From a virus (taxonomy: Duplodnaviria > Heunggongvirae > Uroviricota > Caudoviricetes), in the IMG/VR virus record IMGVR_UViG_2562617057_000002: 27,684 nucleotides of DNA; one strand, 5' to 3'. Below the pieces are notes generated by a model that was not told the origin of the DNA, ran no database searches, and saw only the letters and a list, made by a program, of their open reading frames with translations. The position numbers were made by a program, and so were the translations under genes. Positions 3,958-27,684 of the stretch are shown piece by piece. The stretch's first letter is position 1; each line of letters starts with the position of its first letter.

Positions 3958-4599
3958 ATGAATGCACGAAAAGCGGTACTGGCAGACAATCCGGAATTGA
4001 TCCTGCGTGTGCTACAACTGAGATTTGACGAGTCACTGTCGTACCCGCGCATTTCTGCGCAGACCGGTATCAGCAAAACCGCCATTTTTTCTCTGGTGAG
4101 GCGATTTCACCAGGTATTCACTGACTGGCCTCTTTCCGGGGAATATTCCTGCGTGCAACTGGCCCGGGCTTTGTTCCCGGGGCGATACCCTTCAGCCCCG
4201 ACAGTAACTCAGACTGTGAAAACAGAGAAAAACCGCCGGAACCGATTTTCACCGGAGTTTAAATGGAGACTTGTTCAGCAAACTCTTTTACCCGGTGCCT
4301 GTGTCGCACAAATAGCTCGTGAGAACGGAATCAACGATAACCTGCTCTTTAACTGGCGGCATCTCTGGCGTAACGGCGGCCTGCAGCCGACCGGCGAACA
4401 TGAAACATCGCTACTTCCCGTGACGTTAACTCCGGAGCCGGATAATAAAATCCCGGCACCAGTGCAGATACCTGAACAGATGCCCGACAGTCTGTGCTGT
4501 GAGCTGGTTCTGCCGGCCGGAACTCTCAGGCTGAAAGGTGAACTGACACCGGCGTTATTACAGACACTTATCCGCGAAATGAAAGGGAGCAGCCACTGA
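3958..4599 (+). CDS. tnpA: IS66-family accessory protein TnpA-like (213 aa, with N-terminal extension)
   Basis: C-terminal half (RFSPEFKWRLVQQTL...IARENGINDNLLFNWR) matches the IS66 Orf1 HTH motif; first gene of the element; stop overlaps the tnpB start (ATGA). Confidence 0.75.
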   Translation: MNARKAVLADNPELILRVLQLRFDESLSYPRISAQTGISKTAIFSLVRRFHQVFTDWPLSGEYSCVQLARALFPGRYPSAPTVTQTVKTEKNRRNRFSPEFKWRLVQQTLLPGACVAQIARENGINDNLLFNWRHLWRNGGLQPTGEHETSLLPVTLTPEPDNKIPAPVQIPEQMPDSLCCELVLPAGTLRLKGELTPALLQTLIREMKGSSH

Positions 4600-4946
4600 T
4601 GATATCTCTCCCTGCCGGTTCGCGTATCTGGCTGGTTGCCGGTATCACCGACATGCGAAATGGTTTTAACGGCCTGGCATCAAAAGTTCAGAACGTCCTG
4701 AAGGATGACCCGTTCTCCGGGCATCTGTTCATCTTCCGCGGACGCCGGGGTGACCAGATAAAAGTGTTGTGGGCTGACAGTGACGGACTGTGCCTCTTCA
4801 CCAAACGCCTGGAGCGGGGCCGCTTCGTCTGGCCGGTTACCCGTGACGGCAAGGTGCACCTTACTCCGGCTCAGTTATCTATGCTTCTTGAAGGTATCAA
4901 CTGGAAGCACCCGAAACGAACGGAACGCGCTGGCATCCGCATATAA
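4599..4946 (+). CDS. tnpB: IS66-family TnpB (Orf2)
   Basis: 115 aa, MISLPAGSRIWLVAGITDMRNGFNGLA...KVLWADSDGLCLFTKRLERGRF is the characteristic IS66 Orf2 sequence. Confidence 0.85.
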   Translation: MISLPAGSRIWLVAGITDMRNGFNGLASKVQNVLKDDPFSGHLFIFRGRRGDQIKVLWADSDGLCLFTKRLERGRFVWPVTRDGKVHLTPAQLSMLLEGINWKHPKRTERAGIRI

Positions 4947-4965
4947 CCCGTTGTAAAGTGAGGAT

Positions 4966-6537
4966 ATGGACACCTCACTTGCTCATGAGAATGCCCGCCT
5001 GCGGGCACTGTTGCAGACGCAACAGGACACCATCCGCCAGATGGCGAAATACAACCGCCTGCTCTCACAGCGGGTGGCGGCTTATGCTTCCGAAATCAAC
5101 CGGCTGAAGGCGCTGGTTGCGAAACTGCAGCGCATGCAGTTCGGTAAAAGCTCAGAAAAACTTCGCGCTAAAACCGAACGACAGATACAGGAAGCACAGG
5201 AGCGAATCAGCGCACTTCAGGAAGAAATGGCGGAAACGCTGGGTGAGCAATATGACCCGGTACTGCCATCCGCCCTGCGCCAGTCTTCAGCCCGTAAACC
5301 GTTACCGACCTCACTTCCCCGTGAAACCCGGGTCATCCGGCCGGAAGAGGAATGCTGTCCGGCCTGTGGTGGTGACCTCAGTCCTCTGGGGTGTGATGTG
5401 TCAGAGCAACTGGAGCTTATCAGCAGCGCTTTTAAGGTTATCGAAACACAACGTCCGAAACTGGCCTGTTGCCGGTGCGACCATATCGTGCAGGCACCAG
5501 TACCTTCAAAACCCATTGCACGCAGTTATGCCGGAGCGGGGCTTCTGGCTCATATCGTCACCGGGAAGTATGCAGACCATCTGCCGTTATACCGCCAGTC
5601 AGAAATATACCGTCGTCAGGGCGTGGAACTGAGCCGCGCCACGCTGGGGCGCTGGACCGGTGCCGTTGCTGAACTGCTGGAGCCGCTGTATGACGTGCTG
5701 CGCCAGTATGTACTGATGCCCGGTAAAGTCCATGCGGATGATATCCCCGTTCCGGTCCAGGAGCCGGGCAGTGGTAAAACAAGAACTGCCCGGCTGTGGG
5801 TCTATGTCCGTGATGACCGTAACGCCGGTTCACAGATGCCCCCGGCGGTCTGGTTCGCGTACAGCCCGGACCGGAAAGGTATCCATCCACAAAATCACCT
5901 GGCCGGTTACAGCGGTGTGCTTCAGGCCGATGCTTACGGTGGTTACCGGGTGTTATACGAATCCGGCAGAATAACGGAAGCCGCGTGTATGGCTCATGCC
6001 CGGAGAAAAATCCACGATGTGCATGCAAGAGTGCCCACCGACATCACCACGGAAGCCCTGCAGCGTATCGGTGAACTGTATGCCATCGAGGCAGAGGTCC
6101 GGGGCTGTTCAGCAGAACAGCGTCTGGCGGCAAGAAAAGCCAGAGCCGCGCCACTGATGCAGTCACTGTATGACTGGATACAGCAACAGATGAAAACACT
6201 GTCGCGTCACTCGGATACGGCAAAAGCGTTCGCATACCTGCTGAAACAGTGGGATGCACTGAACGTGTACTGCAGTAATGGCTGGGTGGAAATCGACAAC
6301 AACATTGCAGAGAACGCCTTACGGGGAGTGGCCGTAGGCCGGAAAAACTGGCTCTTCGCGGGTTCTGACAGCGGTGGTGAACATGCTGCGGTGTTGTACT
6401 CGCTGATCGGCACATGCCGTCTGAACAATGTGGAGCCAGAAAAGTGGCTGCGTTACGTCATTGAACATATCCAGGACTGGCCGGCAAACCGGGTACGCGA
6501 TCTGTTGCCCTGGAAAGTTGATCTGAGCTCTCAGTAA
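4966..6537 (+). CDS. tnpC: IS66-family transposase TnpC (DDE)
   Basis: 523 aa; N-terminal coiled-coil/leucine-zipper region, Cys cluster (CPACGG...CCRCDH), C-terminal DDE core; typical IS66 Orf3. Confidence 0.85.
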
Positions 6538-8155: not shown

Positions 8156-8311
8156 TTACTCTCTAGATTCGTAGTCTACGAAGACAGCGACCTCCGTCTG
8201 GCCGGTTCGGATTCGTACCTCATAGAGGTCTTTCCTCGTTACCAGTGCCGTCACAATGACGGTTAAACAGATGACGATCAGGGCGATTAACATCGCCTTT
8301 TGCTGCTTCAT
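8156..8311 (-). CDS. hokD: Hok/Gef-family type I toxin (HokD/RelF-like, 51 aa)
   Basis: MKQQKAMLIALIVICLTVIVTALVTRKDLYEVRIRTGQTEVAVFVDYESRE: single TM helix plus conserved Hok C-terminal motif; the ORF track's 70-aa frame is an in-frame N-terminal extension. Confidence 0.8.
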   Translation of the reverse strand: MKQQKAMLIALIVICLTVIVTALVTRKDLYEVRIRTGQTEVAVFVDYESRE

Positions 8312-8569
8312 AGCCTGCTTCTCCTTGCCTTTCGGCACGTAAGAGGCTAACCTACATGTGTCTAGCATGAAATTGGCCTCAGATTAATGTTAAGCGTCTT
8401 GCAGGACGCGTAATGTTAACCGGGGCTTTTCTCTATCTGCCGTTGGTGTTCATGCCCGAGGCAGATAGCCTCAAGCACCCGCAGTCATTCTACTTAACTA
8501 AGATTTCCCTGCAAACCGTTTTTGTCCAGCACAGTAAATATCCAACTAAACCAATGGAGTTCGCTGTAT

Positions 8570-18957: not shown

Positions 18958-19276
18958 CAATTACACATTTAGTAGCGCCCCTGTCCCCACCAGTTCAGGG
19001 GTTTTTGCTTTCTGATATCCGGGATATTGACAAAGCAACCTGCATTGTTGCAAGATGAACGCACTAGAAACAGTTAAGCGGTCATCCGCACCCGATAGCC
19101 TTGCGGCTTTTTTATGCCTGAAATACGGCACATCCGTACAAAGATCGGGTGGAGAGGCGTAATACAATACCCGTAAGGGGAATATGCCCGGAGCTTCTTA
19201 ACTGGCTCTAGTTGACACCCGATCACCAGCTACTAACTGGTAATCGCAGACTAAAACAGTTAAGGAGGCCACTAAA

Positions 19277-19831
19277 ATGGCTACTATCCCTGCCCTTTCT
19301 CACCCTGACGTAACCATCGAAAATGGTCGCGCTGTCACTACGTCTGTTGCTATTGCGGAGTTCTTCGGCAAACGCCACGAACGTGTGCTGGATAAAATTC
19401 GCAATTTAGACTGCTCATCAAATTTTAACGAACACAATTTTGTGTCGGTCACCTACACCGACACCAAAGGCGAAAAACGCCCAATGTACCAAATCACCAA
19501 AAACGGCTTCGTTTTCCTGGTGATGGGCTTCACTGGCAAAAAAGCCGCCGCATTCAAAGAAGCCTACATTGCTGAGTTCGACCGCATGGAGGCCGAACTG
19601 CGCCAGAATAATACCCTGCCCGCTGACAAAATTATCCCGGGAGATGGCCGTACTCTCGTTGTTCACTTCGACGAACACGGCAACATCAGATTCACCGAAA
19701 CCGTTCCTGACGGTGCAATGGTCTGTACCCTGGATACTTTCCAGTTTTATCTGGAAAAACAGGGGTGGGCTCTTGTAAACCGGAGCGCAATTAAAAATAT
19801 GACTGTGGAACAATTACTTTCTTTAAAATAA
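19277..19831 (+). CDS. rha: Rha-family phage regulatory protein
   Basis: 184 aa; AAGGAGG Shine-Dalgarno; N-terminal motif TTSVAIAEFFGKRHERVLDKIRNL typical of Rha N-domains. Confidence 0.7.
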   Translation: MATIPALSHPDVTIENGRAVTTSVAIAEFFGKRHERVLDKIRNLDCSSNFNEHNFVSVTYTDTKGEKRPMYQITKNGFVFLVMGFTGKKAAAFKEAYIAEFDRMEAELRQNNTLPADKIIPGDGRTLVVHFDEHGNIRFTETVPDGAMVCTLDTFQFYLEKQGWALVNRSAIKNMTVEQLLSLK

Positions 19832-20603: not shown

Positions 20604-22029
20604 TAATGCCAGTCAGTTAAGCAACTGACTGGCTCTTTTTCGGGGCTGTGGGGTATTTCCAGGGCCTCTCCTTTACCACTCTCGGGAAGGCCCTTTCCCT
20701 TCTCGTCGGTAATTTCACAAGTTGTCCCATACTTGCAAGATCGCGCATCAGCTCCGGTATACGTCCCGGTGAAGCGCCCTGCAATGTCATCAGCATTCTC
20801 ATCACCATTCCGCATGATTCTGAGAAACTCAGTTGATTCGGCCAGTAACCTTTCAGATGTTCCGCCATTTTAATCATCTGATATCTCACCAGATTATAAG
20901 CCAGTAAGACACCCCACAGCTCTTGCTCCACAAGCTCCGGCTTTTTACTTCTCAGCGTCAGCCTGCTCAGTTGCATCGTCTGTTTTATCTCCCTGTATCC
21001 CAGTTCGATTTCCCAGCGATGACTGTACAGATCCGCCATTTCTCCTCCGGGGAAGCGCATGGCGTCCGTCATCGACGTCAGCAGATGGCAGACTTTTCCT
21101 TTGCGCGTCACGGTCAGCAGGCGGGCTGTCACTTCATTTCCCAGTCCCGGCCACTTTTTTCGTGCCTGCGGGCTGGTTTTCAGCTTCACCAGATGATCGC
21201 CTTTACCCAGTTTTCTGAGCTCTTCATATTGCGCTCCCTTTCTGAGAGGTATCATCCAGTGGCGGTGTTCTCCCGCCAGGCTCCAGGCATTTAACAGTCC
21301 CAGTGAGTAATAACCTTTATCCATTAACGTCAGAGTGTTATCGCCGGTTTGTTCTATAAGTTGCTCAGCAAGCTCATTTTCGCTGTTCTTCATCGTGCCG
21401 AAGGCTGCAGCCGTCAGCAGATGGCTGGTCAGTTCCATCTGGCAGACCATTTTGACCTGCGGGTAGAGCGCCGGGTTCCCGGCATGTGTCTGGCGGGGGA
21501 AGGCTGCATCGTTCTCTGGTGTATCCGGTGTGCGCCAGAACACACCATCGATGGCCAGCAGGGTCAGGCCGCACCAGTGCGGATGCGGCGTGGCGTTATG
21601 CCAGAGCTGCGCTGTTTTCGTGAACACGCGGCGGACAGCCTCACTTCCCAGGCGCTGGCGGGCCTGAATAACGGCACTGGGGGCAACGAAGGGGCGATTG
21701 CCCGGCAGCATGATGTCCAGGCGATTCACAATCTGGTGAAGAGGTTCTTTACGCTCAAGCGCCATGCCAACAATACACCAGACCATCATTTCGAGGGGAA
21801 GACGGCGCTTGCGTAGCGTTACAGTACCTGATTCGGCAAGGCAACGAGAGATGAGTTCGGGGTCGAGGTAATCCCCCAGAGAAGTCAGTGGGTTACGCAG
21901 AGAATCGTAACGGGATACCAGATCAAGAGCCTGTCCAATGTGCATAAAAAAATCCGGAAACAAGTGAGCGTTTCCGGATTCTTACACAGCCACTGGATCG
22001 GTCAACTGATCCTTAACTGATCGGCATTA
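20604..22029 (-). mobile_element. IS4 (1426 bp) with terminal inverted repeats and a 12-14 bp target-site duplication
   Basis: Ends TAATGCCAGTCAGTTAAG / reverse complement TAATGCCGATCAGTTAAG; direct repeat CTCGGTATTAAAGG at 20590-20603 and 22030-22043. Confidence 0.85.
20617..21945 (-). CDS. insG: IS4 transposase (DDE; InsG-like, 442 aa from MHIGQALDL)
   Basis: Sequence matches E. coli IS4 transposase as recalled; the track frame extends 6 codons further upstream (to 21963). Confidence 0.9.
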
Positions 22030-23881
22030 CTCGGTATTAAAGGCGGTTTTTACTGGGCTGAAGCGAAAAAATTATCCATTGCCATCTCCCGTGGTGCTGT
22101 TGCGATTGACGATGCAGGCTACGATGAAGATGACTTTAAAAAACCTGTTCACGTCAATTTGCCCGTTGTTGATGACCTCCCGCCAGAAGGCGTGTTTGAT
22201 ACGGAATTCTGCAACCGTTACGAAAAAGGCGGGGAAGATGGCATCACAATGGTATTTATCGCATCTTCTCCCTCTGTTCAGGACAAACCAGCCAGCACTG
22301 ACAATACCAACGTCAACGGCGAAGACATGACAGAAATTGAGGAGAACATGCTCCTGCCAGTTTCCGGTCAGGAACTGCCCATTCGCTGGCTTGCTCAACA
22401 CGGCAGCGAAAAACCGGTAACGCACGTTTCACGCGACGGACTCCAGGCATTACACATTGCTCGGGCTGAAGAACTACCGGCTGTTACTGCCCTGGCTGTT
22501 TCCCACAAAACCAGCCTGCTCGACCCGCTGGAAATTCGCGATCTCCACAAACTGGTTCGTGACACTGACAAAGTTTTCCCTAATCCTGGTAATTCAAGCC
22601 TGGGACTGATAACTGCTTTTTTCGAAGCATACCTGAACGCTGACTACACCGATCGAGGACTGCTGACAAAAGAGTGGATGAAGGGTAATCGTGTTTCACA
22701 CATCACTCGCACGGCTTCCGGTGCTAATGCTGGCGGCGGAAACCTCACCGATCGCGGCGAAGGTTTCGTACACGATCTGACGTCACTGGCGCGCGACGTA
22801 GCCACTGGCGTACTGGCCCGTTCAATGGATCTGGACATCTATAACCTTCATCCGGCACACGCTAAACGCATTGAGGAAATTATCGCTGAAAATAAACCGC
22901 CCTTTTCTGTTTTCCGCGACAAATTCATCACCATGCCTGGCGGGCTGGATTATTCCCGCGCCATCGTGGTTGCGTCCGTAAAAGAAGCACCAATTGGGAT
23001 CGAGGTCATCCCCGCGCACGTCACTGAATATCTGAACAAGGTACTGACTGAAACCGATCATGCCAACCCTGATCCGGAAATCGTGGATATTGCCTGCGGT
23101 CGCTCCTCTGCCCCGATGCCGCAGCGTGTAACAGAAGAAGGAAAACAGGATGATGAAGAAAAACCGCAACCATCTTGCGCAATGGCAGATGAACAGGCAA
23201 CGGCTGAAACAGTGGAACCGGATGCAACTGAACATCATCAGGACACGCAGCCGCTGGATGCTCAGTCACAGGTAAATGCTGTTGATGCGAAATATCAGGA
23301 ACTGCGGGCAGAACTCCATGAAGCCCGGAAAAACATTCCGCCCAAAAATCCTGTCGATGCAGACAAATTACTGGCTGCCTCTCGCGGAGAATTTGTTGAA
23401 GGGATTAGCGACCCGAATGATTCGAAATGGATTCCCGGTCATCATATCTCCTCAAATGAAGTCAAAAAAACGGAAAATGAAGTGCGACAGACCGAAGATA
23501 AACAGCACCAGAACAGCGAACCGGAGGAGGGAACACCCTGCAATCAGACTGGCGAGGATAACTGCCCTGACTGTGGCGCGGTGATGGGAGACGCAACTTA
23601 TCAGGAAACTTTTGACGAAAAAAAACCAGATGAAGCACAGGAAGAAGAGCCGAAGAAAACGGAAAAAGCTGATGATTTGTTACCGGAGAACGCTGGCAGC
23701 GATCAGCATAATGATAGCAATAATGAAACTGGCGAAGATGAACTCAACTGGAAAAGACAGGTGTTGATTGCGGCGGTTTACGGTTTATGTGCGAATCCTG
23801 CGTGCATAGCCTATGCGCCTGCAATCCCTGACATCGCAATGATGATTGCCAACAAGCTTGAAAATTTTGGAGTGACCAGTG

Positions 23882-24178
23882 ATGAGCGCTTACCCGATTT
23901 TTGATCGTATTGAAGAAATGGCATGGGCTCGTCACTACCAGCAGATCGTTCGTGAAGAAAAAGAAACGGAACTGGCGGACGACCTGGAAAAAGGTCTGCC
24001 TCAGCACCTGTTTGAATCGCTCTGCATCGACCATTTGCAACGCCACGGTGCCAATAAACAGGCAATCAGCCACGCATTTGATGATGATGTTGAGTTTCAG
24101 GAGCGCATGGCAGAACACATCCGGTACATGGCTGAAACCATTGCCCACCACCAGGTTGATATTGATTTGGAGGACTAA
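23882..24178 (+). CDS. RacC-like small protein (98 aa)
   Basis: WARHYQ..VREE ... [40 protein letters not shown] resembles Rac RacC as recalled; GGAGTGA Shine-Dalgarno; overlaps the 3' end of the RecE-like gene. Confidence 0.5.
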
Positions 24179-25331: not shown

Positions 25332-25520
25332 ATGTATAAAATTACAGCCACTATTGAAAAGGAAGGTGGTTCTCCTGCCAGCTGGACAAGATACTCAAAG
25401 ACAAAACTAACGAAATCAGAATGCGAAAAAATGCTCTCAGGGGAAAAAGAAGCAGGCGCTTCCAGAGAGCAGAAAGTAAAACTGATAAATTTTAATTGCG
25501 AGAAACTTCAGTCCTCGTGA
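25332..25520 (+). CDS. Hypothetical small protein (62 aa from MYKITATIEKEGG)
   Basis: TGGAGGTG Shine-Dalgarno before the ATG at 25332. Confidence 0.45.
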   Translation: MYKITATIEKEGGSPASWTRYSKTKLTKSECEKMLSGEKEAGASREQKVKLINFNCEKLQSS

Positions 25521-25626
25521 ATTTCATTATATCCAGATTAGAACTTCATAGCTGATTATTAAAAATCAACCACACCCGCCAGTATTCTGTATATTTACTG
25601 GCGGTCATATCGTGAGAGGTATGGCA

Positions 25627-25908
25627 ATGAATCTTGTGACACTCAAAACGTGGGGAAAACTCAGATATCCGGATAACCCACCATCAATATCAACGCTGAG
25701 ACGATGGGCAAGGAATGGAAACATTTATCCTGCACCTGAACTACACGGGAGGAGTTACAGGGTGGTTCCGGAGGCTTTCTATATCAACCCAAATAAGGTT
25801 GATACCGATATAACACACCATCAGCCTAATGGGCGACAAGGGAGAGACAGTCCGTTAATGGAGAAGTTAAAACATGCAGCGGAAAAAATACGATCCCAAT
25901 TTGCCTAG
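25627..25908 (+). CDS. xis: Excisionase (Xis-like DNA-binding protein)
   Basis: Motif TLRRWARNGNIYPAPELHGRSYRV resembles lambda-type Xis; overlaps the integrase start; start codon uncertain (25612/25621/25627). Confidence 0.65.
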   Translation: MNLVTLKTWGKLRYPDNPPSISTLRRWARNGNIYPAPELHGRSYRVVPEAFYINPNKVDTDITHHQPNGRQGRDSPLMEKLKHAAEKIRSQFA

Positions 25909-26950
25909 AAACTTAACATATCGAAGGAGAGACAAAGCATATTACTGGCGCAACCCTCTGACGAAAGAAGAATTTACACTAGGTAAAATTTCAAGAAGAG
26001 ATGCAGTAACGCAGGCAATTGAAGCAAATCATTATATATACAAAAACTACTCTCCCGCTGCCTTAATTGAAAAACTTAAAGGGTTCGACTCATTTACTAT
26101 GGCAGACTGGATTGAACGTTACAAAACGATTCTTATAAGGAGAAAAGTGTCCAGAAATACTTATAAAATTCGGGCAAATCAACTGGAGACAATAAAAGAA
26201 AAATTGGGAGAGATTTTACTGACAGAAATAACCACTCGCCATATTGCCGAGTTTCTTGATTTGTGGATTGAAGGAGGGAAAAACACAATGGCAGGATCAA
26301 TGCGTTCTGTGTTGTCTGATATGTTTCGCGAGGCCATTGTTGAAGGACGTATATCTCAAAATCCAGTCACGCCAACAAGAGCACCGAAAATAGTAGTTAC
26401 AAGAGAACGACTGAAACTAAAGACATACAACTGCATCAGGGAGGCAGCAGATCAACTTCCGGCATGGTTCCCATTAGCTATGGATTTAGCCCTTGTAACA
26501 GGACAACGTCGCGAAGACATAACGAATATGCGGTTCAGTGATATTTATGATGATCGTCTCCACGTCAGGCAAATTAAGACAGGAATGATGATTGCTATCC
26601 CCCTGTCACTCAGCCTTCCTGTCGCTGGTCTACGGCTTGGTACAGTAGTTGAACGATGCCGCCTGGTAAGCCGGGGAGATTATCTAATCAGTGCCGGGAT
26701 TAGAAAAAACAGCCCTGACGGCAGCATTCACCCGGATGGCCTGACAAAAAAATTTGTCGCAGCCAGAAAATTCACAGGTATCCAGTTCAGTGAAAACCCA
26801 CCAACTTTTCACGAGATCAGAAGCCTGGCTGGACGATTGTACAAAGAAACATGTGGAGAAGAATTTGCTCAGCGTCTACTTGGCCACACATCGGAGAAGA
26901 CAACAAAAATGTATCTTGATGAGAGAGAAAAAACGTACTTACTGCTCTGA
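25874..26950 (+). CDS. int: Tyrosine site-specific integrase (lambda Int family)
   Basis: 358 aa; N-terminal arm-binding-like region, core and catalytic-domain motifs (R...HEIRS...[13 protein letters not shown]) with a C-terminal Tyr. Confidence 0.85.
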
Positions 26951-26995
26951 TTTTAACGTAAATGGATTGTTAAATGTATTTTGGTTGTGATATAA

Positions 26996-27120
26996 CCAAA
27001 AAGACCGGAATACAGAAATTCGAGTAAATTTCGGGGAATTTCGGGGGAGACATTTGCAACTAATTGATTTCAAATGCAATTAAAAAAAGACCGAATACGA
27101 TTCCTGTATTCGGTCCAGGG
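26996..27120. repeat. att-arm-like repeat region downstream of int
   Basis: Direct repeats AAAAAGACCG(G)AATAC at 26999 and 27085; tandem ATTTCGGGG x2 at ~27029-27048; perfect 10-bp hairpin GACCGAATAC/GTATTCGGTC (27089-27115) with an adjacent A7 run. Confidence 0.4.
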
Positions 27121-27270
27121 AAATGGCTCTTGGGAGAGAGCCGTGCGCTAAAAGTTGGCATTAATGCAGGCTTAGTTGCCTTGCCCTTTAAGAATAGATG
27201 ACGACGCCAGGTTTTCCAGTTTGCGTGCAAAATGGTCAATAAAAAGCGTGGTGGTCATCAGCTGAAATGT

Positions 27271-27313
27271 TAAAAACCGCCCGTTCTGGTGAAAGAACTG
27301 AGGCGGTTTTTTT
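27271..27313. terminator. Bidirectional rho-independent terminator between the prophage end and the convergent secreted-protein gene
   Basis: AAAAACCGCC...GGCGGTTTTTTT with an inner GTTCT/AGAAC stem; A-run upstream and T-run downstream. Confidence 0.6.
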
Positions 27314-27342
27314 ATTGGAAATCAAAAGGCTATTTTAGGTAA

Positions 27343-27684
27343 TTAACAGAGTTTTTCAGCTCGTTCTATAAACGGTGCCAGACTCATTTTTTCGCCGGGA
27401 TTGTTAGGATCATCAATCTGAATCACCGAAATGGGTTGGGCATTGGTCTTCCCACTGGCAACTTCCTTTTGTGCGATATCGTTTAAAGGATACTGCACGA
27501 GGGTACTCGGATTAATAACATACAAAGCATTACCCGGTCGGCAAGTCAGCATCACCTCTTCGCGATTAAACGCCCATTTGTCTTTACCCACTTCAAAACG
27601 ACTGACGGTAATCACCTGCGGTGCAGCCAGCGCCGCTGCAGAACTGGTGAGTAACAGAAACGCCAGAATACTTTTTTTCATCAT
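27343..27684 (-). CDS. Secreted/periplasmic protein with Sec signal peptide (YebY/DUF2511-like by recollection); probable host flanking gene
   Basis: 113 aa; signal peptide [25 protein letters not shown] is at the last bases of the window; moderate GC unlike the adjacent AT-rich prophage arm. Confidence 0.5.

Follow-up and report, generated by a model that had tools for sequence, protein, structure and literature searches.

A lambda-like prophage junction very probably seated in the sdsR/ryeB terminator between pphA and yebY

Results

Genes and features of the locus

In the window, i.e., the whole 27,684-nt stretch of DNA that was analysed, phage genes for excision and integration were followed by an sRNA locus and a convergent host gene (Table 1). 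The integrase carried Pfam domains PF09003 (residues 4-61; 28 bits against a cut-off of 22), PF22022 and PF00589, and its alignment with lambda Int (5J0N/1Z1B) spanned the whole protein (E = 6.5e-73). The protein retained the R, K, H-x-x-R, H and Y motifs: in the alignment to 5J0N, its TGQR, KTG, FHEIR, GH and MY matched the lambda motifs of R212, K235, H308/R311, H333 and Y342. The xis gene overlapped the start of int; an excisionase was annotated in NZ_CP119441 and NZ_CP065615, and xis was found in all 10 homologous loci that were fetched. At least four IS elements interrupted the prophage, and its att site may therefore have fallen out of use.

On the other side of the junction, similarity to prophage-free genomes began at about 27081 when complete E. 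coli genomes were compared. The segment from 27081 to yebY was present at 97-100% identity in all 5426 genomes, and the yebY region was matched in every one of them. The pphA-yebY intergenic region was unbroken in 5189, while 228 (~4%) had this int at the sdsR site. Prophages at this site are often degraded. The gene copD adjoined yebY in every genome examined, and the order yebY-copD-yobA-holE was the same in K-12. Neither of the two Rfam hits was truncated (gathering thresholds 38 for RF00111 and 37 for RF00101). The terminator common to SraC/RyeA and yebY was predicted to fold on both strands, at -20.6 kcal/mol (+) and -19.8 kcal/mol (-), with z of about -4.2 and -4.5 and a U-run after each stem.

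A sequence-only reading had proposed a prophage/host junction just downstream of int, and comparison with the empty site and with related lysogens confirmed it. The elements which that reading listed were all present, namely the direct repeats (26998-27013 and 27083-27098), the tandem repeat (twice exact, 27027-27046), the perfect 10-bp hairpin with its 7-nt loop, the bidirectional terminator and the convergent gene; the repeats and hairpin, described as lying within about 180 bp of the int stop, fell within 165 bp of it. The refuting case named there, a phage-encoded secreted-protein gene with the junction outside the window, did not hold, yebY being a host gene. Nor was this gene of different composition: GC was 0.36-0.51 in int and 0.42-0.45 in yebY, and the phage arm alone was distinct, at 0.325. 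The SdsR/SraC sRNA pair had gone unrecognised.

Table 1. Positions of genes, sites and candidate sites around the junction (window coordinates)
Feature	Position	Strand	Details
xis, lambda Exc-family excisionase	25621-25908	+	Pfam PF07825, E = 7e-14; RefSeq relatives start at second ATG, 25627
int, intact 358-aa lambda-type tyrosine integrase	25874-26950	+	Stop 26948-26950; arm-binding, core-binding and catalytic domains
Putative phage-arm promoter facing sRNA locus	26967-26996	+	-35-like TTGTTA 26967-26972; extended -10 TGTGATATAAC 26986-26996; predicted +1 ~27003
Conserved core-like box AAAAAGACCGGAATAC	26998-27013	+	Phage arm; role unexplained; inside PP818812.1 and OK490361.1 attP
Three tandem arm-type repeats (likely), P'1-P'3 analogues	27016-27046	+	AAATTCGAGT 27016-27025; (A)AATTTCGGGG 27026-27036; AATTTCGGGG 27037-27046
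IHF consensus (H'-like) AATCAATTAGTTG = WATCAANNNNTTR	27057-27069	-	Consensus match, offset -42 from loop
sraC/ryeA, 3' part, antisense to sdsR	27078-27313	+	Rfam RF00101, 179.1 bits at 27078-27222; terminator T-run ends 27313
att identity block common to both junctions, 32 bp	27081-27112		Three diagnostic mismatches: 27087, 27096, 27108; attB/attP/junction alignments
sdsR/ryeB sRNA gene, complete	27181..27082	-	Rfam RF00111, 118.1 bits, model 1-100 of 100
Core inverted repeat GACCGAATAC / GTATTCGGTC with 7-nt spacer GATTCCT	27089-27115		Arms 27089-27098 / 27106-27115; also SdsR terminator stem-loop
Crossover segment ACGATTCCTGT, 11 bp	27097-27107		Terminator loop (7 nt) plus 2 bp each side
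Bidirectional terminator, host DNA, common to SraC/RyeA (+) and yebY (-)	27272-27311	both	Arms 27272-27281 / 27302-27311
yebY, host gene, 113 aa	27343-27684	-	Pfam PF10709 (DUF2511/YebY), E = 2e-45; RefSeq annotation

The att core and the site of strand exchange

No complete E. coli genome matched at least 80% of the window; O121 201805972, whose sequence agreed with the final 985 bp at 100% identity, and FDAARGOS_943 were used in its place. Six sequences were compared at the core, among them an empty site, the far junctions of the two lysogens and the intact attP of PP818812.1 and OK490361.1. Phage DNA lay to the left of the crossover and host DNA to the right. At the int-side junction, 27087 and 27096 were of phage type and 27108 was of host type, and the pphA-side junctions of O121 and FDAARGOS_943 showed the reciprocal pattern. 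In empty sites attB read AAAAAGAGACCGAACAC-GATTCCT-GTATTCGGTC, and in the free-phage records attP read AAAAAAAGACCGAATAC-GATTCCT-GTTTTCGTC; the attP of PP818812.1 was the predicted P-O-P' sequence. Both prophage junctions were reciprocal chimeras of attB and attP, which places the exchange inside ACGATTCCTGT; as judged from these alignments, strand exchange is confined to 11 bp. The far junction of this prophage lies outside the window, so the host alleles proposed for 27087 and 27096 derive from empty sites and from lysogens of related elements; the phage alleles would be A and T, respectively.

The inverted arms flank a spacer that falls inside the crossover segment, and the segment lies 16-26 nt from the SdsR 3' end (27082). 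This perfect hairpin occurred once in the window; its minus strand was terminator-like, with a predicted fold of -15.8 kcal/mol. The junction, which had been placed after the cluster of repeats and hairpin, instead runs through it, and the core, which had been thought impossible to place from one junction, is now located to within 11 bp with the help of the empty site, the junctions of relatives and attP. Alignment to an uninterrupted host locus, one of the checks suggested with the sequence-only reading, was run and helped to define the core. The other, a search for a matching core at the opposite prophage end, succeeded in O121 and FDAARGOS_943 and failed in the window, where the far-arm sequence was searched for throughout and not found. 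Comparison with FDAARGOS_943 puts the far junction outside the window, about 20 kb past its left edge.

Thus region 26950-27340 very probably represents the junction nearest int (attL by lambda convention) of an IS-damaged, lambda-like prophage in the sdsR/ryeB terminator, within the pphA-yebY intergenic region. The junction is genuine but ordinary because this terminator was previously known as a phage insertion hot spot.

The int-side arm and its conservation

The three arm repeats lay 56-86 bp from the overlap centre. Two exact copies of AATTTCGGGG stood back to back (27027-27036 and 27037-27046) and were the sole matches with at most one mismatch in the window; the third copy (27016-27025) was degenerate. 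Counts in the window were not significant, as at least two such AATTTCGGGG matches arose in 67 of 100 shuffles and at least one match to the box pattern in 29 of 100. The decisive evidence beyond chance was that every arm and core element was conserved at constant spacing across 13 loci of 11 genera. The repeat triplet kept a 10-11 bp period in the 11 genera, its 3' halves, which read GGGG, GAGG, GGAA or GTGT, co-varying within each locus, and the box was found in 13/13 loci, 83-86 nt from the left arm of the core. Int homologues (61-74% identity) ended 84-130 nt from the SdsR 3' end, measured from the stop codon, in all nine genera (Citrobacter, Scandinavium, Cedecea, Cronobacter, Serratia, Klebsiella, Pantoea, Buttiauxella and Shigella). 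None of the motifs was found with the Rahnella homologue, and the Yersinia locus ran into non-SdsR sequence past the core.

The IHF consensus WATCAANNNNTTR was exact in 7 of 13 loci and had one mismatch in 2 of 13, at a fixed offset (-42; -41 in S. flexneri, with its 1-nt deletion), in spacers that had otherwise diverged. It was absent from 3 of 13, and Yersinia had only a one-mismatch form at a different offset and on the other strand. Three exact matches occurred in the whole window. In the far arm, TTTCG sites were seen at +125 and +146, in the same orientation and at positions fixed across genera. The far arm of O121 also had another core-like stretch (CAATTCCTGTATTGAATA, ~+184 to +201), which was not conserved in pPE4 and was attributed to chance.

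The direct repeat pairs AAAAAGACCGGAATAC with AAAAAAGACCGAATAC, which were 75% identical without gaps and 15/15 with a 1-nt indel. It consists of one phage-arm box and the left arm of the core, 85 bp apart, and not of two arm-type sites. The box, eight helical turns from the core in 13/13 loci, could be an extra core-type Int site; read as an inverted arm-type site, it showed no consistent similarity across genera and was rejected. The tandem repeats are likely arm-type sites to which Int would bind. Of the repeats previously called arm-type, the tandem ATTTCGGGG copies very probably are Int sites, whereas the hairpin and the 27083-27098 copy of the direct repeat belong to the host sdsR terminator, which is the att core.

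We assigned the 7-bp overlap and the candidate core-type, arm-type and IHF sites by analogy and conservation. On these assignments, the N-terminal domain of Int would bind the three (A)AATTTCGnn repeats and the far-arm sites at about +125 and +146, while IHF would bend the spacer at 27057-27069 and fold the arm back onto the core. The arms of the terminator stem are the presumed core-type sites, at which Int would act through its core-binding and catalytic domains, with the 7-nt loop as overlap region. Xis would direct excision, restoring attB as ...GACCGAACAC-GATTCCT-GTATTCGGTC and attP as ...GACCGAATAC-GATTCCT-GTTTTCGTC.

Alternative explanations

The arm repeats were kept in Serratia, Pantoea, Yersinia and Buttiauxella, where no promoter-like element accompanies them. 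This argues against taking the repeats and the box as transcription or operator-like signals (of a phage regulator or an SraC arm promoter), with the Int arm sites elsewhere, even though a conserved extended -10 (TGTGrTATAA) stands just upstream, the box would be at +1, and ryeA/ryeB expression is reported to be altered by lysogeny (PMC7380047). The distances of the repeats from the overlap centre match the familiar lambda P'1-P'3 positions, the IHF consensus sits between repeats and core, same-orientation copies occupy fixed positions in the other arm, and the arm-binding domain of Int needs such sites; the signal reading is unlikely. Recombination and transcription roles of the repeats are not exclusive.

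In two phage records, an unbroken attP contained box, repeats and spacer, and the other phage arm came after the core. Together with an order and an 83-86 nt spacing that persisted in 13 loci from 11 genera despite divergence of the spacer, unlike a fossil, this largely refutes the view that the direct repeats are two successive att sites, that the intervening ~85 bp are what is left of an older element at this hot spot, and that repeats and hairpin are fossils and not a working arm. We consider that view very improbable, although the box resembles the left arm of the core, prophages at the sdsR site are frequently degraded, and the ryeA/ryeB locus in Salmonella is a published hot spot with repeated insertions (PMC7380047, PMC3333887). 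That the phage carries yebY and the sRNA locus as cargo, with the true host boundary beyond the window, has next to no probability: although yebY is a small gene for a secreted protein, in convergent orientation to int, the notion is on present comparisons already refuted by the E. coli genomes (the 27081-yebY segment in 5426/5426, 5189 of them with an uninterrupted pphA-yebY region) and by the K-12 gene order.

Comparison with known systems

The int side of lambda attP is laid out as C'-H'-P'1P'2P'3, and its distal arm carries P1/P2 (Landy's reviews). The present element resembles it in having three tandem, likely arm-type repeats at +56 to +86, an IHF consensus match between repeats and core, two spaced candidate sites in the distal arm like P1/P2, and a core inverted repeat with a 7-bp spacer. 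An Int with three domains and the catalytic residues, and an Exc-type Xis beside int, are also common to both. By analogy, the arm and core layout appears to match lambda attP almost position for position. However, the arm site here is ATTTCGnn, different from the lambda arm-type consensus, and the additional conserved core-like box at +89 to +102 has no lambda counterpart. Further, the lambda core is weakly symmetric and lies between gal and bio, whereas the core here is an sRNA terminator hairpin with perfect 10-bp arms in the lysogen.

Several integrases target the 3' ends of small-RNA genes, including those of P4 at leuX, P22 at thrW and CP4-57 at ssrA. As in these tRNA and tmRNA systems, a tyrosine recombinase finds its dyad in the symmetric stem-loop of a conserved RNA gene, and the copy of the 3' end brought by the element restores the RNA. 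By contrast, the target here is an Hfq-binding sRNA with a regulatory role that is overlapped by an antisense RNA, and therefore restoration of SdsR truncates SraC/RyeA and would uncouple the downstream read-through gene pphA.

The element is an E. coli/Shigella-type member of the already published ryeB kind of attachment site (Salmonella, Balbontin et al. 2008, J Bacteriol 190:4075). The attachment site of PhiW104 is given as the last 23 bp of ryeB (review PMC7380047, citing Balbontin 2008; also PMC3333887). This site would correspond to 27082-27104 of the window and overlaps both the 32-bp identity block and the 11-bp crossover. PhiW104 and the Salmonella hot spot share with the present junction the target (3' end of ryeB/sdsR, internal to ryeA), the rebuilding of SdsR and the replacement of the 5' part of ryeA. 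The Salmonella prophage ZC-S1_prp had int DNA 73% identical to that of the window and the same attP layout. Differences lay in the cargo, sopE in the Salmonella element versus ipaH3 in relatives of this one, and in the host, which here is of E. coli/Shigella type. Relative to Balbontin 2008 as cited in PMC7380047 and PMC3333887, the present analysis adds the narrowing of the crossover to the terminator loop, the arm architecture and the Int lineage over 11 genera. A wider search of the literature on the ryeB/sdsR site in E. coli, Shigella or ipaH prophages gave no further reports.

Effects on sdsR, sraC/ryeA and pphA

Comparison with K-12 showed that the last ~16-26 nt of SdsR, i.e., the 3' half of the terminator stem and the U-tract, came from phage DNA. 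SdsR remained full length after insertion, with a terminator stem of equal predicted stability. The idea that the phage improves the SdsR terminator was rejected, since the minimum free energy of the stem was -15.8 kcal/mol in both versions and the U-tract alone differed; any effect on the SdsR level therefore cannot stem from stem stability.

Sequence to the left of 27081 was unrelated to K-12, where the ryeA promoter sits, and the K-12 ryeA -10 (TATGGT) lay on the other side of the crossover. In published work, transcripts that start at the sdsR promoter read through into pphA, the ryeA -10 is on the pphA side, and RyeA 3' ends fall at +261 to +270 (PMC6610125). Extrapolating from the K-12 and Salmonella work, sraC/ryeA would lose its native promoter and first ~56 nt, left behind at the pphA-side junction, and the whole prophage would separate pphA from the sdsR promoter, its normal source of read-through. 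In Salmonella, ryeA expression reportedly went down and ryeB expression went up upon lysogeny (PMC7380047, citing Balbontin 2008).

A conserved promoter of its own may exist in the int-proximal arm. Among nine aligned loci, TGTGrTATAA was invariant and ATGTTAA nearly so, about 13 nt apart amid variable flanks, and the sixth base of the -10 hexamer was never T. A promoter scan of the window did not report the arm promoter because the -10 hexamer ends in C. The predicted +1 falls on the conserved core-like box, and the predicted RNA lengths agreed with published SraC sizes (PMC3333887); the Shigella/Salmonella-type SraC promoter described in the literature has its -10 box ~35 bp further upstream and gives an RNA ~35 nt longer. 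We tentatively propose, at somewhat less than an even chance, that this promoter drives a chimeric antisense SraC of ~311 nt against SdsR, with pphA also losing access to the sdsR promoter. The Shigella/Salmonella-type SraC promoter would then be prophage-arm DNA, a lysogen would exchange the host promoter of ryeA for one of phage origin and not simply lose RyeA/SraC, and the phage would actively rewire a toxin/antitoxin-like sRNA pair.

SdsR regulates many targets (e.g., tolC and ompD), RyeA/SraC counteracts SdsR, and pphA relies on sdsR read-through; the prediction is therefore that sRNA regulation in stationary phase is altered in lysogens at the sdsR site. Between-species comparisons of 'SraC' may really compare host with phage promoters. 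For annotation, the prophage boundary is fixed to within 11 bp, and the hairpin counts as a working terminator of a host sRNA, not as phage arm DNA. Current understanding is not overturned by the junction findings. The multi-genus alignment offers a map of a lambda-like attP for experiments, and relatives of the element have the T3SS effector genes ipaH3 and sopE beside the far arm.

The int-side junction in the SdsR terminator

All elements listed in a sequence-only reading were present downstream of int, and were described there as a prophage/host junction with arm-type repeats. The junction was real and the general idea right, but the anatomy differed, with the junction running through the cluster itself. 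The perfect inverted repeat, which occurs once in the window, and the U-run after it are the Rho-independent terminator of the host sRNA SdsR (RyeB). The second hairpin is the terminator common to SraC (RyeA) and yebY; published RyeA 3' ends are at +261 to +270 (PMC6610125), and the K-12 geometry reproduced a 271-nt RyeA RNA. The claimed compositional difference between int and yebY was absent from the composition profile.

Features of the window (nt)
Feature	Position	Strand	Details
int ORF	stop at 26950		
Direct repeat	26998-27013, 27083-27098		AAAAAGACCGGAATAC, AAAAAAGACCGAATAC
Core-like box, multi-locus form			AAAGACCG(G)AATAC
Tandem repeat	27027-27046		two exact adjoining copies of AATTTCGGGG
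Inverted repeat	27089-27115		perfect, 10 bp, 7-nt spacer
SdsR/RyeB	27181..27082	minus	Rfam scan, full length, 118 bits
SraC/RyeA	27078-27222	antisense to SdsR	Rfam scan, 179 bits
Second hairpin	27272-27311		terminator fold on both strands
yebY	27343-27684		ORF convergent with int
IS insertions (IS21 IstB; IS66-, IS110-, IS4-family transposases)	34-552, 3958-6537, 11653-12849, 20617-21963		
Four phage tRNA genes	1834-2141	minus	ARAGORN: Val-TAC, Thr-TGT, Arg-TCT, Met-CAT; clustered beside lysis genes
sok antisense RNA	8306-8480	minus	Rfam, 113 bits
sRNA-Xcc1 match	19143-19232	plus	Rfam, 67 bits (gathering threshold 53)
rha	19277-19831		truncated
recE	22159-23904		truncated
DUF1187 (RalR/Lar-like) ORF	25332-25520	plus	opposite RalA
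RalA antitoxin sRNA	25338-25516	minus	Rfam, 204 bits

In prophage-free genomes, the match to the window began at about 27081 and extended rightwards only. The empty site of K-12 type read ...CAGATAAAAAGAGACCGAACAC GATTCCT GTATTCGGTCC..., and the far (pphA-side) junction read ...AAAAAGAGACCGAACAC GATTCCT GTTTTCGTCAACAAAC... in two lysogens, EIEC-like O121 201805972 and FDAARGOS_943, whose int-side sequence was the same as that of the window. An uninterrupted attP was found in phage record PP818812.1 and Salmonella prophage record OK490361.1, both in the order window's arm, core and far arm. When aligned in a table, the two junctions were reciprocal chimeras of attB and attP: on the int side, positions 27087 (A) and 27096 (T) were of phage type and 27108 (A) of host type, and the pphA side showed the reverse pattern. 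Because the junction alleles form such chimeras, strand exchange is placed by sequence comparison inside ACGATTCCTGT (27097-27107), which comprises the 7-nt SdsR terminator loop flanked on either side by two stem pairs. The wider identity block (27081-27112; 32 bp, three mismatches) agrees with the attachment site of Salmonella phage PhiW104, for which PMC7380047 (citing Balbontin 2008) and PMC3333887 give the final 23 bp of ryeB. Insertion at ryeB has thus been described before in Salmonella; the present case is of E. coli/Shigella type with a lambda-like attP. The far junction was searched for within the window and not found; the FDAARGOS_943 comparison puts it about 20 kb past the left edge.

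Recombinase and relatives

Int has arm-binding, core-binding and catalytic domains as in lambda; residues 8 to 353 aligned with lambda Int structures (E = 6.5e-73), the catalytic motifs were kept, and an Exc-family xis overlaps the int start. Homologues with 61-74% identity were spread across Enterobacterales. The order xis-int-SdsR-yebY-copD was found in Shigella, Citrobacter, Scandinavium, Cedecea, Cronobacter, Serratia, Klebsiella, Pantoea and Buttiauxella, with 84-130 nt from the int stop to the SdsR 3' end in these nine genera. Box, repeat and core motifs were all absent after the stop codon of the Rahnella homologue (65% identity). In Yersinia, box, repeats and core were present, but the sequence after them was not SdsR and held more ATTTCG repeats, at +125 and +146; this pattern would be consistent with an attP-like joint or with tandem elements. 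PP818812.1 is labelled 'Actinobacillus phage vB_Apl-pPE4' with host A. pleuropneumoniae; its int and P arm were 96% identical to those of the window prophage, and its attP matched enterobacterial sdsR. Judged by sequence, this host label looks doubtful.

Arm architecture

The arm alignment showed a constant order of box, three tandem repeats, spacer and core, with a box-to-core distance of 83-86 nt at 13/13 loci. The (A)ATTTCGnn repeats directly followed the box with a period of 10-11 bp, and their 3' halves co-varied per locus (GGGG, GAGG, GGAA or GTGT); the repeat-to-core spacer was conserved in length and variable in sequence. An exact IHF consensus lay on the minus strand in the spacer of 7 of the 13 loci, and a one-mismatch form in 2 more, at an offset of -42 relative to the loop (a 1-nt deletion makes this -41 in S. 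flexneri); the whole window held only three exact matches. In the far arm, E. coli-type phages and Yersinia had TTTCG both at +125 and at +146 relative to the loop; Salmonella had it at +146. Counted from the centre of the overlap, the int-side repeat triplet spans +56 to +86, where lambda has P'1-P'3, with H' between these and C'. Because the positions match this map, the tandem ATTTCGGGG repeats are, by conservation and analogy, candidate arm-type Int sites and 27057-27069 a candidate H'-like IHF site. The tandem ATTTCG repeats are the only arm-type candidates in the cluster; the hairpin is the SdsR terminator and att core.

Copy 2 of the direct repeat is the core's left arm, in the SdsR terminator, and copy 1 is the conserved phage-arm box. 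A scar of an earlier insertion was ruled out for the box, which lies inside both free-phage attP sequences with its position kept across genera. The box falls just beyond the span needed in lambda attP, and could serve as an additional core-type site or as the +1 region of a putative arm promoter.

Putative arm promoter

Just upstream of the box, TGTGrTATAA was invariant in nine aligned loci, and ATGTTAA about 13 nt before it was nearly so; neighbouring stretches were unconserved. Together they look like an extended -10 promoter aimed at the sRNA locus, with a -10 hexamer whose last base was never T. The element was absent in the Serratia/Pantoea/Yersinia/Buttiauxella group, where the int stop lies 2-10 nt before the box. 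The predicted RNA, from 7 nt past TGTGrTATAA to the SraC terminator, had a length of 311 nt in the window and 306 nt in S. flexneri; the S. flexneri value exceeds the 271 nt predicted for K-12 by exactly 35 nt. Frohlich et al. reported SraC about 35 nt longer in Shigella/Salmonella than in E. coli and a potential -10 box about 35 bp further upstream there (PMC3333887), a good, indirect fit. Only the arm promoter and the core-like box are possible new additions.

Predicted effects on sdsR, ryeA and pphA

SdsR was full length in the lysogen, with a predicted stem energy of -15.8 kcal/mol, equal to K-12; the sole terminator change was in the U-tract (UCUUUUUAU to UUUUUUUAAUU). The copy beside the prophage in S. 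flexneri SFBU1023 (L005:2700-2850) was decayed, with terminator arms GACCAACAT / GTATTGGGTC, small deletions and an Rfam score of 81 bits versus 114-118 elsewhere. The crossover leaves the native ryeA -10 (TATGGT, which Choi et al. mutated) on the pphA side, together with the first ~56 nt of RyeA; therefore, the window has only the 3' part of sraC/ryeA. K-12 pphA is transcribed via read-through from the sdsR promoter (PMC6610125). In a lysogen, pphA is predicted to be set apart from that promoter by the whole prophage.

T3SS effector cargo adjoined the int-distal arm: ipaH3 in E. coli/EIEC prophages (L002:43715-45430, L018:47721-49436) and sopE in a Salmonella element (L004:3004-3726). Once integrated, both point in the same direction as the host ryeA promoter left at the pphA-side junction, and host read-in from it is conceivable.

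Prophage state and other features

Four IS insertions (IS21, IS66, IS110 and IS4 families) and truncated recE and rha were found; the prophage is probably defective with int intact. No complete E. coli genome covered at least 80% of the window, which therefore probably derives from a Shigella or EIEC strain. Among 5426 complete E. coli genomes, the pphA-yebY intergenic region was uninterrupted in 5189, and int of this type adjoined yebY in 228.

Just upstream of xis-int, RalA and the DUF1187 ORF form a type I toxin-antitoxin pair of the Rac type. The sok match indicates a hok/sok locus, and the FDAARGOS_943 annotation has a Hok/Gef gene at the corresponding place. The CAT tRNA, Met by ARAGORN, is tRNA-Ile in RefSeq for a related prophage. 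The truncated rha is directly preceded by the sRNA-Xcc1 match.
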